Virus record (IMG/VR): IMGVR_UViG_3300023184_008416
Coordinates: 64,001-128,000 of that record
DNA: 64,000 nucleotides
From: a virus
Reading direction: 5' to 3' (one strand)
This document shows, one piece after another, positions 57,367 through 64,000 of the stretch; position 1 is the first letter of the stretch, and each line of letters opens with the position of its first letter. A program made the position numbers and the translations under genes. The notes beneath the pieces were generated by a model. The model made no database searches, was not told the origin of the DNA, and was given only the letters and a program-made list of their open reading frames with translations.

Positions 57367-58548
57367 ATGGCACGCAAGTTAAACGAAATCACAACAACAC
57401 AAACCAAATCTCCCGCTGATGATATTGCTTCACAACTCATCAAAGATTTAAATAAAACATTTGGAACCAGGGTTGCATATAACCTCAGTGAAGATGAAGC
57501 TCCCACGGTCGTGAAGCGTTGGATTGATACAGGCTCAATTCAACTTGATTATGCAATCAGAAACAGCACCGATGGTGGTTACCCAGAAGGAAGAATCATA
57601 GAAATTTCAGGCCTACCATCATCAGGAAAATCTCACCTCGCTTATCATGCAGCTGCAGTAACACAAAAGTTAGGTGGGTTAGTCGTCTATGTAGACACAG
57701 AAAATGCGACTCCTGTGCAGAAGCTGGCTAACATGGGGATTGATGTTGCGCATAGATTTGTTTATTGCGACACACACTGTACAGAAGAAGTTTTTGCTAT
57801 CATTGAGTCGACGATTCTTAAAGCAAAACAAATCATTGATAAAAACGTTCCAATCTTGGTCATCTGGGACTCTGTGGCAGCGACTTCTCCCAAGGCCGAG
57901 TTGGAAGGCGAGTATGATCAGAATTCCATGGGTCTGCAGGCTCGAGTCATTTCAAAGGGCATGCGTAAAATTACGGGTGTCATCGGGCAGAATAACGTCA
58001 CCCTGCTCTGTTTGAATCAAATTCGTGATAATATTGGAGTGATGCATGGAGATCCATTGACCACCCCTGGTGGCCGTGCGATTCCCTTTCATGCTTCAGT
58101 TAGAATTCGTTTGGGTTCTGGTAGTCCTGTCAAAGACAAGGCTGGCAATATCATTGGCATTCATACGACTGTGACGATTAAGAAAAATAAGGTCGCTGCA
58201 CCCTTTCGTAAGTGTGAGTTTGATATTATCTTTGGGAAGGGTATTGTCGAGGATGAATATCTTTTTGATGAAGTCCGGTCACATTGCAAAGAATCAGGTC
58301 CTGTTAAACGAGGAGGCAAAGACATTAATATTTCCGGCGAAGGTGCATGGAAAGAGTTGGTTGTCACCGACACAAAAACGGGTGAAGTGTTGCTTGAAAA
58401 GAAATTTTATAAATCGGAATTTGGAGAAATGTTAAAGGATGACAAGTACAGGGAATACATAATGTCAGCAATTGATTCAGCACTCACTTTGGTCGGAGGT
58501 GAACCATCCGGTGAAGGCGACGGCGAAGGAGAAACAAGCGATGAGTAA
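57367..58548 (+). CDS. recA: RecA/UvsX-like recombinase
   Basis: TGSIQLD, GGYPEGRIIEISGLPSSGKS, YVDTE, WDSVAA, NQIR, TTPGGRAIPFHASVRI and KNKVAAPF. Confidence 0.95.
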   Translation: MARKLNEITTTQTKSPADDIASQLIKDLNKTFGTRVAYNLSEDEAPTVVKRWIDTGSIQLDYAIRNSTDGGYPEGRIIEISGLPSSGKSHLAYHAAAVTQKLGGLVVYVDTENATPVQKLANMGIDVAHRFVYCDTHCTEEVFAIIESTILKAKQIIDKNVPILVIWDSVAATSPKAELEGEYDQNSMGLQARVISKGMRKITGVIGQNNVTLLCLNQIRDNIGVMHGDPLTTPGGRAIPFHASVRIRLGSGSPVKDKAGNIIGIHTTVTIKKNKVAAPFRKCEFDIIFGKGIVEDEYLFDEVRSHCKESGPVKRGGKDINISGEGAWKELVVTDTKTGEVLLEKKFYKSEFGEMLKDDKYREYIMSAIDSALTLVGGEPSGEGDGEGETSDE

Positions 58549-58996: not shown

Positions 58997-59946
58997 TGAC
59001 AATTGACAAATCAATTCTTATAATTGATGGATCAAACATGTTTATTAGGTGTTATAGCGCCTGCCCTGACATGTCATTACATGGTCACCAGGTCGGTGGA
59101 ACGATAGGCTCTTTGAGGACATTACGTCGTCTTTTAAATGAATTGCAACCTTCAGCCTTGTATCTTGTTTGGGAGGGTGGAGGTTCGTCTCGACGAAAGA
59201 GTCTGTTTTCTGAGTACAAAGAAAATCGTCGACCTGAAAAGCTGAATAGATTCTACGAAGATGATATTCCAGATTCAGACGACAATCGTCAACATCAGCT
59301 TGTGACTCTGATTAATTTGGTTAGGTTTCTTCCAATTAGACAATTATATGTTTCTGACTGTGAGGGAGATGATGTCATTGCTTTTTTGTGCAGAGGACCA
59401 CTACGAGGTTTAAATAAAGTTATTGCATCTTCTGATAAAGACATGTATCAACTTTTAGATCCTTTGACGAGGACATACTCCTTTCACAAGAAACGTTATG
59501 TTACAACTCAAGACGTGTTAGAAGAATTTAGAATATCTTGTGTCAATTTTTCTCTGGCCAAATCACTGTGTGGTGATCCGTCAGACAACATACCCGGTGT
59601 TGAGGGATTAGGTTTTAGGACAGTGGCAAAAAAATTCCCGTTTTTGGGATCAGATAATCCAATTATTTTACAAGATATTTTTGATTATTGTCACTCACGC
59701 GCAAAAGAATCTATCATTTATCGTCGAGTTTTGGAACACCGTGACGAGGTGGAAAGAAATTGGCGTTTAATTCACCTAGATGTTACATCGCTTGCTCCAG
59801 AGCAAATAAAACGTATTGAAACACAACTTAGTACATCAATACCCAAGGGGGATAGGATGTCACTAATTCGAGGTCTGGTTCAAGAGGGAATCGGAGATTT
59901 TGATGTTGAATCAATGTTCTACGCTTTTAACTGTCTAGAACGATAG
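58996..59946 (+). CDS. 5'-3' exonuclease / flap endonuclease (T4 RNase H or PolI 5' nuclease-like)
   Basis: LIIDGSN, YKENR, EGDDVIA, SSDKD and GDPSDNIPGVEGLGFRT. Confidence 0.92.
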   Translation: MTIDKSILIIDGSNMFIRCYSACPDMSLHGHQVGGTIGSLRTLRRLLNELQPSALYLVWEGGGSSRRKSLFSEYKENRRPEKLNRFYEDDIPDSDDNRQHQLVTLINLVRFLPIRQLYVSDCEGDDVIAFLCRGPLRGLNKVIASSDKDMYQLLDPLTRTYSFHKKRYVTTQDVLEEFRISCVNFSLAKSLCGDPSDNIPGVEGLGFRTVAKKFPFLGSDNPIILQDIFDYCHSRAKESIIYRRVLEHRDEVERNWRLIHLDVTSLAPEQIKRIETQLSTSIPKGDRMSLIRGLVQEGIGDFDVESMFYAFNCLER

Positions 59947-59953
59947 GAAAATC

Positions 59954-60748
59954 ATGTCAGAAATTACAGAATCTACAGGTCTTAACAAAGTCAACTTTGG
60001 AACCTATGGCAAACACTTTCAAGAGTGTGTCATGGCGGGTCTGCTCACAGACAATAGATGGGCAGAGCAAATGATGGAAGTATTTGATACAGAATATTTT
60101 GAACTCAAATACCTTCGATTCTTGGCCGAGAAGTACTTTGCTTATTCTCGCAAATACAAGGTTTTTCCTACCTTACAACTTCTTGCAACAATTATTAGAG
60201 AGGATCTAAAGACGGGATCAGACGCTCTTTTGCGTGATCAGATCATCGATTATTTGACTCGAATCAGAGCCAATCCGATGACCAACGACATGCAATATGC
60301 CAAAGAAAAATCTCTTGATTTTTGCAAGAAACAAGCCTTGAAGCATGCGTTGGAAACTGCAGTGGATCAGATGCAGGCAGAAAAATACGAGTCAATCGTT
60401 GAGACCATTCGTCGAGCAGTCTCTGTTGGAACAGTCCCCGCAGTTGGACATGATTTTTTGAATGACATGGAGGCACGGTTCACTCGACAAAAAAGAGACA
60501 CCATTCCAACTGGATTGGCTGAACTTGACAAGAAAGAAATTTTTAACGGTGGTTCCGGTAAAGGAGAGCTGTACTGTGTGATTGGTTCAACCGGGGCAGG
60601 AAAGTGTAGTGTACGTGATACTTATATTCACGTCAGATACACAACAATCAAAATCAATGGAAAATCCTACAAGCCTTGGGACAAGATCAGAACCCAAAGA
60701 GGCGAAATTTTTGTAAGAGACATCGTCAAATCAGACGAGCTCCTGTAA
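59954..60748 (+). CDS. Replicative helicase (DnaB/gp41-like), N-terminal half fused to an N-intein
   Basis: IPTGLAELD...GELYCVIGSTGAGK, then CSVRDTYI (intein block A), then a stop. Confidence 0.88.
   Translation: MSEITESTGLNKVNFGTYGKHFQECVMAGLLTDNRWAEQMMEVFDTEYFELKYLRFLAEKYFAYSRKYKVFPTLQLLATIIREDLKTGSDALLRDQIIDYLTRIRANPMTNDMQYAKEKSLDFCKKQALKHALETAVDQMQAEKYESIVETIRRAVSVGTVPAVGHDFLNDMEARFTRQKRDTIPTGLAELDKKEIFNGGSGKGELYCVIGSTGAGKCSVRDTYIHVRYTTIKINGKSYKPWDKIRTQRGEIFVRDIVKSDELL
60605..60745 (+). mobile_element. Split intein, N fragment (47 aa)
   Basis: Cys1 directly follows the Walker A lysine. C-x-x-x-D-T-x-I block A pattern. Confidence 0.82.
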
Positions 60749-61853
60749 CAAATGTGTTTATTGTGATAGGACTTATGTTTCCCACAGCGGATTGGTAAGT
60801 CATCTAAGAAAGAAGCATGGACAAACTTATCGAGATTACAGGACACAAAATGGAATTTTGACAAAACGTCAGCAAAATCCTGCAAAAAACACAGTTAGAG
60901 AGAAAATGAAACAACGGCAGCAGGAATTATTTCAGCAAGGGCTCGCTGAAGGTTTATCTCCTATGAAGTGTTTAATTTGTGGTTTTGAGTCGATGTTTAC
61001 GTTGATTAGTCATATTTCTATGAAACATCAAATTACTACCGATGTCTATAGGGAAAAATTTGGTATTGAAAAAATACAACAAATTTTGCCATCGCAGAGA
61101 CAAGTTATAAGATCAATTGTAAAAGAAGCAATGAACAGGCCTGACGTCAAGGAGAGAGTTGCTTTGAAAAGGTCGTTTCCATCCGAGAAAAAGCATTGGC
61201 TTAATAAAGGTTTTACAGATGATGAGGCATCGAAAAAAGTCTCTGAATTTCAAAGAAGCATGGCTCTTCGAGCCGATGAGGAAACAAGAGCAAAATTATC
61301 GCAAAAGTCTCGTGGTAAAAATAATCCAATGTCAATTGAGTCAATCGCAAAAAGACACGGAGTTTCCCACGAAGAAGCGCGGCTTCTTACTCCGGCATGT
61401 GGTAGGTCTGGAGAATTACATCCAATGTGGGGGAAACGTCACACGCAAGAATCTTTGGAAAAGATTGCCTCATCTCGGCACCTCACAGATCCGACGTGGA
61501 GATCAAAACCAGAAATTCAGCTTGAGGAATGGTGTAAGTCTGTGTTCGGTGAATCTCAGGTGAAGGCAAACACAAAGATTAGCAGGTGGAATATTGACAT
61601 CCTCATTCAGGAAAAAAAGTTAATTGTTGAATTGTTTGGAGATTTTTGGCACATGAATCCTGACAAATTTTTGGAAACTGACGTCAATAAAATCACCAAT
61701 AAGGTAGCAAAAGAAATATGGCAGCACGATCTTAAAAAACTTGAATATCTGAAGACAAATGGTTACAATGTTTTAGTGGTGTGGGAACGTGACTGGAAGT
61801 TAAACCAGGAGCAGACAAAGGAAAGAATAAAAGATGCTTACAATCGAGTTTGA
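60717..61853 (+). CDS. Free-standing zinc-finger + Vsr/DUF559-like endonuclease (start uncertain)
   Basis: Two C2H2-type fingers, HPMWGKRHTQES (NUMOD3-like) and SKPE...IDILI...VELFGDFWH...D...GYNVLVVWE. Frame is open from 60717; the first canonical start is TTG 60792. Confidence 0.8.
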   Translation, partial: ETSSNQTSSCNKCVYCDRTYVSHSGLVSHLRKKHGQTYRDYRTQNGILTKRQQNPAKNTVREKMKQRQQELFQQGLAEGLSPMKCLICGFESMFTLISHISMKHQITTDVYREKFGIEKIQQILPSQRQVIRSIVKEAMNRPDVKERVALKRSFPSEKKHWLNKGFTDDEASKKVSEFQRSMALRADEETRAKLSQKSRGKNNPMSIESIAKRHGVSHEEARLLTPACGRSGELHPMWGKRHTQESLEKIASSRHLTDPTWRSKPEIQLEEWCKSVFGESQVKANTKISRWNIDILIQEKKLIVELFGDFWHMNPDKFLETDVNKITNKVAKEIWQHDLKKLEYLKTNGYNVLVVWERDWKLNQEQTKERIKDAYNRV

Positions 61854-62316
61854 CAGTGTGGAAGAACAGATTAAAATCGGTGATTTGTTTGACCAAATTG
61901 GATTTGAACAAACATCACGTCCCACCGACGATTCTGGTGACTCATTCATCAAGAACGATTGGTCAATTGAAGCGCTTTCACTGGATGGGTATTATCCTGT
62001 AGAAGGTTTTCGATGGACAAAACCGGAACGTAAGATGCAGATCGCTCACAGGAGCATCAACCCATTTATCTTGGAGGATCAAATTCCGACTCTCGACTGC
62101 TCACCAGAGCACCTGCTTTTAAAGAGGGTCTCTGAGACTGAGTTTCAATGGGTGGAAGCCAAGACGTTACTTGAAAATGATGTCATTGTTGGATCCTTTG
62201 GTTCTTTAAGAAAAGTTGTCTGTGCATTACCTCTCGATCAAGCTGATGAACGACTCTGTGATTTGCAGGTGTCAATTGCACACTCGTATATGACAAATGG
62301 TATCTTGTCTCATAAC
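61834..62316 (+). mobile_element. Split intein, C fragment (161 aa)
   Basis: IKIGDL, block B CSPEH, WVEAKTL, and blocks F/G LCDLQV...HSYMTNGILSHN followed by Ser. Confidence 0.88.
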
Positions 62317-63111
62317 TCTCACTTTTTGACAATGATTGGGGCCAATGCCCTGCAGGACGGCCGCAATGTTTTGCATTACACCTTTGAATTATCTGAAACT
62401 TCTGTCGGAACCCGGTACGATTCCAACCTTTGTGATATAGATTCCAATGAGGTGATGGATCGTAAAGAAGAGGTCAAATCATCCTATGAGAAGATGAAGT
62501 TAGGTCGACTGTTCATTAAAGAATACCCAACTAATTCTGCATCCATTTTTACCCTTAGAGCTCACATTGAACGTTTGGATTTGAAAGGATTCAAACCCGA
62601 TATTATCATTATTGACTATGCCGACATCATGAGATCAACACGCCAGTATGATTCTTTGAGACATGAGTTGAAATTGGTGTACGAAGAGTTACGTGCTATG
62701 GCAATGGAACTAGGAGTACCTGTTTGGACAGCGTCTCAATCAAACAAAGAAGGTGCCAATAGCGATGTTATTGATGTTACTAACATGAGCGAGGCATATG
62801 GCAAAGCGATGATTTGCGATGCTATCGTGACAATTTCTAGAAAGGCTCATGAGAAATCAACGGGATGGGGTCGATTATTTGTCGCTAAAAACCGTGCAGG
62901 CAGAGATGGATTAGTTTATCCAGTGCAGATTAACACGGCTCGGTCCAAGTTTACCATTGTGGGTAATGCGGGAAGCCCAGAACAAGTGTCTGCAGAAAAT
63001 GACGCAGAAATGAAAAAAGCCTTACGAGATAAATGGAGAGAGTTACAAAGTGAAATGTCTTTTATTCCGTCAACAAAAGGCGAGTTACCTAGAACAGGAA
63101 CAGATAGTTAA
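61834..63111 (+). CDS. C-intein fused to the replicative helicase C-terminal half
   Basis: After SHN come SHFL, VLHYTFELSE, IKEYPT, IIIDYADIM (Walker B), WTASQSN and KNRAGRDG. Confidence 0.9.
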   Translation: MLTIEFDSVEEQIKIGDLFDQIGFEQTSRPTDDSGDSFIKNDWSIEALSLDGYYPVEGFRWTKPERKMQIAHRSINPFILEDQIPTLDCSPEHLLLKRVSETEFQWVEAKTLLENDVIVGSFGSLRKVVCALPLDQADERLCDLQVSIAHSYMTNGILSHNSHFLTMIGANALQDGRNVLHYTFELSETSVGTRYDSNLCDIDSNEVMDRKEEVKSSYEKMKLGRLFIKEYPTNSASIFTLRAHIERLDLKGFKPDIIIIDYADIMRSTRQYDSLRHELKLVYEELRAMAMELGVPVWTASQSNKEGANSDVIDVTNMSEAYGKAMICDAIVTISRKAHEKSTGWGRLFVAKNRAGRDGLVYPVQINTARSKFTIVGNAGSPEQVSAENDAEMKKALRDKWRELQSEMSFIPSTKGELPRTGTDS

Positions 63112-63132
63112 GAACCTCCGGAGTGTGATACA

Positions 63133-64000
63133 ATGATTACATACACAAGAGATGAAGCATTTGCAACATCATTGAAGTATTTCAATGGTGACGAATTGGC
63201 AAGTTCCGTATTCATCGACAAATACGCATTAAAAGACTTGTCAGGAAAGCTCTTGGAACTGACTCCATCCGACATGCATCGTCGTTTGGCAAAGGAATTT
63301 GCTAGAGTCGAGAAGAAATATCCCAATCCGCTGTCTGAGAAGGAAATCTTTTGTTTGTTGGCAGATGTCAGCCATCTTGATGCGACCCAAATCGAGAAGA
63401 TGTCTATCGATGAGTTGGCCGCCGAGTCTAGAGGATTGGGAGCCGTTATTCCCCAGGGGTCTCCCATGTCGGCGATTGGTAACGATTTTCAATACCAGTC
63501 TTTGTCCAATTGCTTTGTAATTCAGTCACCATACGATTCATACGCTGGCATCCTTAAGGCTGATCAAGAGCAAGCGCAGATCATGAAGCGCCGCGGCGGA
63601 GTTGGTTTTGACATCTCTACCATTCGACCAAAAGGTATCGTCACCGCCAATGCGGCTCGCACCACCGATGGCATCGGCGTATTCATGGAGAGGTTTTCCA
63701 ATACGTGTCGAGAAGTTGCGCAAGGTGGAAGAAGGGGTGCTTTGATGCTTACCATCGATGTTCATCATCCCGAGATTCGCACCTTTATTAACATTAAACG
63801 TGACCTAAAGAAGGTTACTGGCGCCAACATCTCCATTCGCCTCTCCGATGAATTCATGCAGGCCGTGAAGGATGGGACCAAAGTTCAACTCAGGTTCCCA
63901 GTTGAAAAGGATGTCAAACACTCCATCGAAGAGATGGTAGACGCCAAGCAACTTTGGCACGAGATTATTGAGGCAGCGTGGGCTTCAGCAGAACCTGGTC
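63133..64000 (+). CDS. nrdJ: Class II (B12-dependent) ribonucleotide reductase, 3' end outside the window
   Basis: Hand translation from ATG 63133 gives KYALKD...PQGSPM...SLSNCFVI...MKRRGGVGFDISTIRPKG...VAQGGRRGALML...TGANIS...AWASAEPG. Missing from the ORF track because it has no stop in the window. Confidence 0.88.
   Translation, partial: MITYTRDEAFATSLKYFNGDELASSVFIDKYALKDLSGKLLELTPSDMHRRLAKEFARVEKKYPNPLSEKEIFCLLADVSHLDATQIEKMSIDELAAESRGLGAVIPQGSPMSAIGNDFQYQSLSNCFVIQSPYDSYAGILKADQEQAQIMKRRGGVGFDISTIRPKGIVTANAARTTDGIGVFMERFSNTCREVAQGGRRGALMLTIDVHHPEIRTFINIKRDLKKVTGANISIRLSDEFMQAVKDGTKVQLRFPVEKDVKHSIEEMVDAKQLWHEIIEAAWASAEPG

Follow-up and report, generated by a model that had tools for sequence, protein, structure and literature searches.

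Introduction

Both fractured genes and inteins with an atypical split have been described before, and the locus analysed here is, in its layout, of a known kind. It lies in a 64,000-nucleotide stretch of DNA (the window), which corresponds to bases 64001-128000 of the 161,915-bp IMG/VR virus record IMGVR_UViG_3300023184_008416 (~162 kb, estimated to be 45% complete) and which belongs to a large freshwater jumbo phage. In this window, the replicative helicase is encoded as two polypeptides, which are most likely rebuilt into one protein through trans-splicing by a naturally split class-1 intein located in the Walker A motif (P-loop).

Fractured genes that combine split inteins with a free-standing endonuclease were previously found for gp41-1 to gp41-9, NrdJ-1, IMPDH-1 and others (Dassa et al. 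2009, PMC2677866). As in these loci, the window contains separate open reading frames (ORFs), each composed of one extein half and one intein part, the first closed by a genuine stop and the second opened by a start of its own, and an endonuclease gene lies between them on the same strand; the published endonucleases are Vsr-like with NUMOD motifs, as the window one appears to be, and endonuclease-free variants exist there too (gp41-7) (PMC2677866). Unlike the window intein, the inteins from Dassa et al. are canonical, with a long N-terminal fragment (IntN) and a short C-terminal fragment (IntC) separated at the usual endonuclease-domain site, whereas the window intein is divided into 47 and 161 amino acids (aa) by a break after strand β2. 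The insertion points also differ, since gp41-1 to gp41-7 are found at position 356 of P-SSM2 gp41 and the window intein at the P-loop Lys|Ser, and the published loci have a non-coding spacer of 27-51 nt before the endonuclease gene (PMC2677866), while the window ORFs overlap on both sides.

Among natural inteins, atypical splits are rare, and inteins of this kind are prized for semisynthetic protein labelling; the five named in the literature consulted here are AceL-TerL, GOS-TerL, VidaL and PolB16, together with the engineered consensus Cat. Two split sites have been defined for them, S1 and S2, the latter being located after helix α1, and the characterised natural atypical IntN fragments are 15-37 aa long (PMC13014065). 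VidaL (PDB 6vgv/6vgw) is a natural S1-type atypical intein split after β2, with a 16-aa IntN, and AceL-TerL and GOS-TerL are split at S2, with IntN fragments of 25 and 37 aa, respectively (PMC13014065); the PolB16 OarG intein (PDB 8cpn) has a 15-aa IntN and a 168-aa IntC (PMC10189870). The features that distinguish the window locus are its P-loop Lys|Ser site in a jumbo-phage helicase, a 35-aa insert at the split point, the 47/161 partition and the overlapping genes. No paper describing this intein family was found in the full-text literature searched, the main papers on the origin of VidaL being outside that search, and this widespread version appears undescribed.

Two helicase halves interrupted in the Walker A motif

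Three ORFs are found on the + strand at the locus, in frames 2, 0 and 1 in order. The first one (59954-60748, 264 aa) reaches GSTGAGK and then continues with a Cys and 46 more residues before a TAA stop, the middle one is listed as 60792-61853 (353 aa counted from a TTG), and the third one (61834-63111, 425 aa) starts 1085 nt after the stop of the first, its residues 1-161 ending in ILSHN before SHFL. The two outer ORFs comprise the following parts:

59954-60604, + strand: N-extein, 217 aa; helicase N-terminal domain and start of the RecA-like core, ending in Walker A ...GSTGAGK (PHROG 19, TIGR03600; abuts the C-extein in 126 intein-less relatives)
60605-60640, + strand: IntN core, 12 aa (CSVRDTYIHVRY); Cys1 (60605-60607), β1 and β2 of the Hint fold (Cys invariant; aligns to residues 1-12 of the contiguous relative L008; co-fold pairing)
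60641-60748, + strand: IntN insert, 35 aa (TTIKING...SDELL), and TAA stop (60746-60748) (missing from L008; present in all split relatives and in P0009, P0016, P0038, P0049 and P0099)
61834-62316, + strand: IntC, 161 aa; long β3, helix α1, block B SPEH (His93), block F RLCDLQV..H and block G ILSHN (invariant residues; family profile against gp41-1, NrdJ-1 and VidaL)
62317-63111, + strand: C-extein, 264 aa and stop; Ser+1 (62317-62319) completes Walker A, followed by the remaining RecA-like core (DnaB_C, PHROG 19; S162 invariant)

The outer ORFs cover complementary parts of PHROG 19 (DnaB-like replicative helicase), the N-fragment matching profile positions 163-366 (3.6e-18) and the C-fragment positions 369-588 (1.1e-45), and the same is seen with the NCBIfam model TIGR03600 phage_DnaB (421 positions; 6-210 and 218-418, respectively); Pfam DnaB_C also matches the C-extein (1.3e-14). 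By these profile matches, ORFs 59954-60748 and 61834-63111 are confirmed as two halves of one DnaB/gp41-like helicase, cut at the Walker A Lys/Ser (GAGK|S), in agreement with an earlier note on this DNA that had read them as helicase halves in different frames. The same note held that joining the exteins restores Walker A, and this is also what is seen in 126 non-redundant related helicase genes from IMG/VR and JGI metagenomes, where the equivalents of the N- and C-exteins abut with zero gap at G-x-GK|SH in an intact Walker A motif. The non-redundant loci that bear the intein number 14.

Conserved splicing residues and a predicted Hint fold

What interrupts the helicase at the Walker A Lys|Ser is a naturally split intein, as the earlier note had proposed; it is of class 1, with Cys1/Ser+1 chemistry, and invariant catalytic residues, a family profile and structural models all point in this direction. 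Cys1 comes directly after GAGK and is invariant in 13 of 13 N-fragments, and an alignment of 25 diverged C-fragments showed that M1, H93, D143, H150, H160, N161 and S162 are invariant. The location of these residues leaves block A alone on the N-fragment and blocks B, F and G on the C-fragment, again as first described. When the profile of the intein-parts family was compared with PDB chains, the best sequence match was gp41-1 (1.2e-10), and NrdJ-1 (6.7e-9), VidaL (8.8e-9), Spl DnaX (6.6e-7) and CatC (1.6e-6) were also matched. In addition, relatives with a single ORF (P0009, P0016, P0038, P0049 and P0099; 658-682 aa) carry ~205 extra residues at the same site, and the 47-aa tail of the window N-fragment aligns to the first 47 residues of these contiguous inteins, the counterpart of the C-fragment beginning directly after.

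The structural model of the contiguous relative L008 (163-aa intein) has a mean predicted local distance difference test (pLDDT) score of 95.9, and a Foldseek search with it returned VidaL 6vgv as the best match (2.7e-9, template modelling score 0.85), then NrdJ-1, gp41-1 and dozens more inteins. Judging from this model, the Hint (horseshoe) fold is present in this intein family. Co-folding of the two window fragments, which the earlier note had put forward as a check, gave a favourable answer: residues 200-264 of the N-fragment and 1-180 of the C-fragment reached interface scores (ipSAE) of 0.91, 0.91 and 0.90, whereas the highest score among three controls was 0.02. At least 75% of the contacts are shared between the runs, with a partner pLDDT of at least 76, and blocks B and G adjoin the splice junction in the co-fold. 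When the co-fold mark was calibrated, 58 out of 80 complexes of solved structure reached it, as did 2 out of 110 mismatched pairs.

Based on conservation, fold and predicted association, trans-splicing is the most likely assembly route, as had been suggested at the outset. An N-precursor (217-aa extein plus 47-aa IntN) and a C-precursor (161-aa IntC plus 264-aa extein) would be translated from one compact gene block, and β2 of IntN would then zip in between two strands of IntC, the long first one and a later one, to complete the Hint fold. The residues performing the standard four-step splicing would be Cys1, the His of block B, the Asp and His of block F, the terminal His-Asn and Ser+1, and the product would be a 481-aa helicase with an intact P-loop GAGKS. 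An essential phage helicase would then depend on a post-translational ligation within its own P-loop.

Several observations weigh against this reading. The Thr position of block B is occupied by Ser or Ala in this intein family (SPEH in the window). The window IntC alone obtains 15.2 bits on Pfam Intein_splicing, where the cut-off is 35.8, so that its family membership rests on the family profile and on the models of relatives; the intein profile comparison suggested in the earlier note thus gave a divided answer, with the family profile matching solved inteins and the window IntC by itself staying below the cut-off. The co-fold score may partly be a memory of solved inteins, and it stands for a predicted association rather than for binding as such, and we infer the splicing activity of the split intein from its sequence. 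Finally, DnaB_C has one match across the 162-kb record, and as that record is ~45% complete, a second, intact helicase may be encoded beyond it.

This last point bears on a different explanation, according to which the fragments associate through their intein halves, or not at all, but are never ligated, leaving either a non-covalent two-piece helicase or a decaying pseudogene in a phage replicated by another helicase. Non-covalent assembly has been documented for the endonuclease-split NrdA of an Aeromonas phage (PMC3045599), and the incomplete record and the already damaged endonuclease of the window (see below) would also fit. However, all residues needed for splicing are invariant across fragments that are 36-94% identical, the exteins show strong conservation, and each of the two ORFs is intact in four further sequencing runs. 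Moreover, ATP binding would hardly be expected from a P-loop that stays cut between Lys and Ser. We consider an assembly without ligation to be unlikely, and retain trans-splicing as our reading of the locus.

The frame breaks are found in independent contigs and in relatives

A further explanation is that the intein is in fact contiguous and of the ordinary kind, with an endonuclease domain nested in it, and that frameshifts from assembly or sequencing conceal this, as might be suspected from three overlapping ORFs in three successive frames and from the existence of contiguous forms of the same intein. Logan contigs from four further lake or freshwater runs (X2-X5, which carry four study codes, the 2018 lake samples possibly being from one campaign) were aligned to window positions 59900-63200, and no insertion or deletion was reported over this region, the contigs of X2, X3, X4 and X5 being indel-free at both boundaries. 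Contigs with zero differences cross the N-fragment stop (X3, 60408-60839; X2, 60646-60896) and the C-fragment start (X2, 60887-62065; X3, 61678-61867). The check for indels across the boundaries that had been envisaged in the earlier note, made here on the contigs of X2-X5, thus found no indel that fuses the ORFs.

The sequences around the breaks tell the same story. An in-frame TAA (61828-61830) is found two codons 5' of the C-fragment ATG (61834), and a protein search with C-fragment residues 1-170 returned 109 proteins, nearly all of them 400-440 aa long; in an alignment of 25 of these 109 relatives (36-94% identical), all 25 C-fragments start at the same Met-Leu. Stop and Met positions are identical in loci that are 40-70% identical, the endonuclease-free loci L045 and L047 retain the stop and a fresh Met, and contiguous forms lack the endonuclease altogether. 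Since the contigs are indel-free, since a TAA precedes the C-fragment and since relatives share its Met-Leu start, a frameshift artefact is excluded for practical purposes, and we regard this largely refuted explanation as extremely improbable.

Alleles with and without the intein seem to coexist in one run

Run X3 has contigs identical to the intein and endonuclease, but it also has a 305-nt contig (word depth 5.86) with a different structure: its first 23 bases correspond to window positions 60581-60603 and are followed by AAGCCAT, and its last 275 bases correspond to 62323-62597 with one difference. In frame, this contig encodes GAGK-SHF and is without exactly 60605-62316, which are the 1712 nt containing IntN, the endonuclease and IntC. 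All three junction codons differ synonymously, being AAG TCT CAC in the window and AAA AGC CAT in the empty contig. These observations are suggestive of the coexistence of intein-plus and intein-less alleles among near-identical phages of run X3, and we grade them no higher because they come from a single short contig with a 23-base side. With both alleles in one lake population, the homing cycle of a composite intein-endonuclease element may be observable in nature. When codon usage was compared more broadly, the Ser+1 codon was TCN in 13 of 13 split alleles and AGY at 26% of the empty sites, a difference that is weak given shared ancestry.

The same 1712-nt interval could in principle be removed at the RNA level, as a group I or II intron, or be skipped by the ribosome. 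Some phage genes indeed have group I introns that bear an endonuclease, and members of the Vsr-like family have been found in introns of this type (PMC2677866). Nevertheless, no Rfam family matched in 59500-63500 at E values up to 1, the interval begins and ends exactly at blocks A and G of the intein, whose conservation is at the protein level, and the intein-less form was found in a run that is recorded as DNA. An RNA-level or ribosomal route is hard to reconcile with these findings and we give it hardly any credence, so that joining at the protein level by the split intein stays our preferred explanation.

The break maps to the S1 site and IntN carries an insert

The earlier note had likened the geometry of this intein to that of the TerL split inteins and had expected a short N part, and neither expectation was borne out. 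In L008, the Cys and 11 residues are followed directly by the counterpart of the window C-fragment start, without the 35 residues TTIKING...SDELL, and its model shows a strand (7-14), a turn, a second strand (17-24) and a helix (25-31). In the model of P0038, a contiguous form whose intein begins at residue 215, the first strand is extended (221-231) and followed by a small meander (234-250) and two short turns, before a long return strand (262-272) leads into a helix (273-279), with pLDDT values of 84-94 throughout; the window break maps just before this return strand. The tightest contacts of the co-fold link N-fragment residues 223-228 (TYIHVR) with C-fragment residues 10-16 and 43-48. Since the L008 and P0038 models and the co-fold contacts agree, the modelled split is at the tip of the β2/β3 hairpin, which is the S1 site of VidaL and PolB16 and not S2, the site after α1.

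As for its length, IntN measures 47 aa in 13 of 13 split loci, consisting of the 12-aa core and the 35-aa insert, and therefore exceeds the 15-37 aa known for natural atypical IntN fragments. Within the insert, W242, T247, R249, G250 and D261 are invariant among the 13 N-fragments, and the P0038 model shows it extending β2 and making a small β-meander at the hairpin tip, where it probably adds binding surface. Another origin for this tail, as a relic copy of early intein strands, was considered on the basis of a weak MAFFT alignment to IntC segments; with the P0038 model displaying an integrated insert at the hairpin tip, this idea is unsupported, although not disproved. The minimal relative L008 suggests, by analogy, that the 12-aa IntN core may suffice, as a working idea for design, and the family may interest protein engineers for its natural sequence diversity and its Cys1/Ser+1 chemistry.

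Among the atypical inteins, VidaL is the nearest structure to L008 and shares with the window intein the Cys1 chemistry, a C-terminal ..SH(N)|S with Ser+1 and a split after β2. The two differ by their low identity in the structural alignment (~19%), by the absence of an insert from the VidaL IntN, where the window has its 12-aa core plus 35-aa insert, and by an extra N-terminal strand in the window IntC. VidaL itself presumably resides in a T4-like helicase. The PolB16 OarG intein is also naturally split in the atypical S1 manner and has a large IntC (Foldseek, 1.2e-6), but it is a cysteine-less Ser1/Ser+1 intein in a PolB polymerase and its sequence match is marginal (0.04). AceL-TerL, GOS-TerL and the consensus Cat resemble the window intein by their atypical split, their short IntN and the presence of blocks B, F and G all on IntC (CatC, 1.6e-6), whereas AceL-TerL and GOS-TerL are split at S2, after α1, and reside in the terminase large subunit.

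An endonuclease gene that overlaps both helicase halves

The interval between the two helicase halves is occupied by a putative free-standing homing endonuclease gene of the Vsr-like type, which fills the break and overlaps both halves:

60657-60716, + strand: endonuclease 5' leader, in the +1 frame relative to IntN; ATG 60657 inside IntN Asn-Gly codons, premature TAA 60714-60716 (same ATG in six relatives)
60717-61853, + strand: endonuclease remainder; C2H2-like finger 1 (CVYC 60753-60764), finger 2, NUMOD3 and Vsr-like nuclease domain, stop 61851-61853
61817-61836, + strand: purine-rich Shine-Dalgarno-like stretch (AAAGGAAAG) and C-fragment ATG (61834), inside the endonuclease C-terminal codons ERIKDAY

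In Pfam, the middle ORF matches NUMOD3 (38.4 bits, cut-off 20.4) and ROS_MUCR (29.6 bits, cut-off 25.4), and MTES_1575 and DUF559 are found below their cut-offs. The Vsr-type core gives weak matches, with TIGR00632 at 22.5 bits (1e-4; cut-off 97.9), PF18741 at 25.6 bits (cut-off 38.2) and PDB Vsr chains at E values of 0.14-0.2. The ORF also matches PHROGs annotated as homing or HNH endonucleases, and seven relatives share its conserved nuclease motifs. Previous descriptions exist of I-Bth0305I and of the Vsr-like (EDxHD) family of homing endonucleases (PMC3239194; PMC2677866). As in that family, which occurs in fractured genes, a C-terminal and apparently Vsr-like core (D..E..GD.WH..D..WE) lies behind modular DNA-binding motifs, but the window protein has two C2H2/MucR-like fingers and a NUMOD3, a TAA is found near the 5' end of its gene, and the Vsr models all stay below their curated cut-offs. 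Its endonuclease activity and its target are presumed ones.

Comparison with relatives indicates where this gene normally starts. In L002, L003, L004, L029, L121 and L082, an ATG inside the Asn/Asp-Gly codons of IntN opens a frame of ~30 codons, in the +1 frame of IntN, which runs into finger 1 and has a Gln where the window has TAA. A second, proximal ATG is found inside IntN Asp-Glu codons in L002, L004 and L069, and it is ACG in the window. The first canonical start left in the window endonuclease is TTG 60792, inside finger 1 and 3' of its Cys pair; since the relatives open at an ATG embedded in IntN codons, this listed TTG is not the native start. An intact, translatable endonuclease frame was thus not found in the window, where the premature TAA interrupts it and the proximal ATG is replaced by ACG.

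The premature TAA (60714-60716) is also present in contigs of X2 and X3. At the corresponding position of IntN, P0110 and P0111 have IFARD where the window has IFVRD, and if the Ala codon of these relatives is assumed to be GCA, the endonuclease TAA and the Ala to Val exchange in IntN would be one and the same C-to-T change. P0110 and P0111 are the closest N-fragments (95-97% identical in the tail) and both have Ala, so that on this assumption the nonsense change is recent. The window endonuclease has just lost its normal N-terminus, through the premature TAA and the ATG to ACG change. A shortened protein could still work, since the endonucleases of L029 and L121 naturally miss finger 1. The claim in the earlier note that an endonuclease gene separates the halves therefore holds for the presence of a Vsr-like/NUMOD3 ORF at this place, with the corrections that it overlaps both halves and that its frame is interrupted in the window.

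At the other end, an AGGA and the C-fragment ATG are found inside the last endonuclease codons (R-I-K-D/N-A) in 11 of 11 loci that keep at least the 3' end of the endonuclease. The endonuclease/C-fragment overlap is 20 nt in the window, and a short overlap is likewise seen in all loci that keep this end. Matches to a sigma-70-like promoter were at chance level (10 found when 9.7 were expected), and the terminator-like sites (7 found when 3.3 were expected) showed no meaningful placement between the ORFs.

Contiguous, split and endonuclease-free forms of the intein family

Contiguous forms, split forms with an endonuclease and split forms without it occur side by side in this family. The three-gene layout (N-fragment, endonuclease, C-fragment) is found in L002, L003, L004, L029, L069, L083 and L121. 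In L001 (3790-3930), L082 (887-1036) and L085 (3061-3141), only the last 27-50 endonuclease codons remain, and these carry the Shine-Dalgarno stretch and the ATG of the C-fragment, while L045 (3794-3847) and L047 (2417-2625) are split but endonuclease-free, with a gap of 51 nt or 206 nt that contains a stop and a new Met. From their sequences, L001, L082, L085, L045 and L047 look like stages of endonuclease decay. The contiguous forms are P0009, P0016, P0038, P0049, P0099 and L008 (5941-6429), and the endonuclease is absent from them.

A maximum-likelihood tree of the C-fragment region was built from 31 rows, the other rows of the alignment being N-fragments only. On this tree, split forms are interspersed with the six contiguous ones, and branches with good support require a minimum of four changes; for instance, P0099 groups with P0093 (100/100), and both P0038 and P0049 fall within a 100/99 clade of split forms. 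This pattern fits an endonuclease cassette that has been gained and lost repeatedly at a single position, a reading of sequences in which the tree does not fix the direction of the changes and in which intein/extein recombination could blur the tree.

One possibility, which we put forward tentatively and consider rather doubtful, is that the endonuclease and the 35-aa insert form a nested mobile cassette that homes into the β2/β3 hairpin tip of the intein itself, and not only into the helicase gene. Such a cassette would toggle the intein family again and again between contiguous and split forms, and its insert, which would be dual-coded with the endonuclease leader, would double as an affinity clamp that makes a weak S1 split viable. 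The interleaving of contiguous and split forms (at least four changes), the absence of the insert from L008, the conserved overlap, the endonuclease remnants and the endonuclease-free split loci allow this idea. An IMG/VR scan with P0009 found no contiguous locus carrying the insert, and returned only L008/L162 and N-fragments truncated by contig ends.

The family is diverse: C-fragments form more than 100 clusters at 90% and ~10-19 clusters at 50% identity, and when IntC was compared with 1.84 billion cluster representatives, 19 clusters were found at E values of at most 0.001 and 10 at 1e-10. A protein search with the N-fragment tail returned 3 proteins, which should not be taken as a sign of rarity, given that short regions have few exact words in common. 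The relatives P0001 and P0002 show 94% identity.

The metagenomes that hold the stretch are lake and freshwater runs, and a blastn search against a phage collection gave no match to it. The genes found near the helicase locus are those for recA, dUTPase, a 5'-3' exonuclease and ribonucleotide reductase. The recA gene of the window (57367-58548) is intact. In relatives whose helicase is intein-less (L095:604-1972, L129:576-1944 and L011:756-2550), an intein that is 26-34% identical to the window IntC interrupts the neighbouring recA gene, its insertion point being after residue 226 of RecA, and since an endonuclease-like ORF precedes this intein in L095 and L129, their recA genes are fractured as well.

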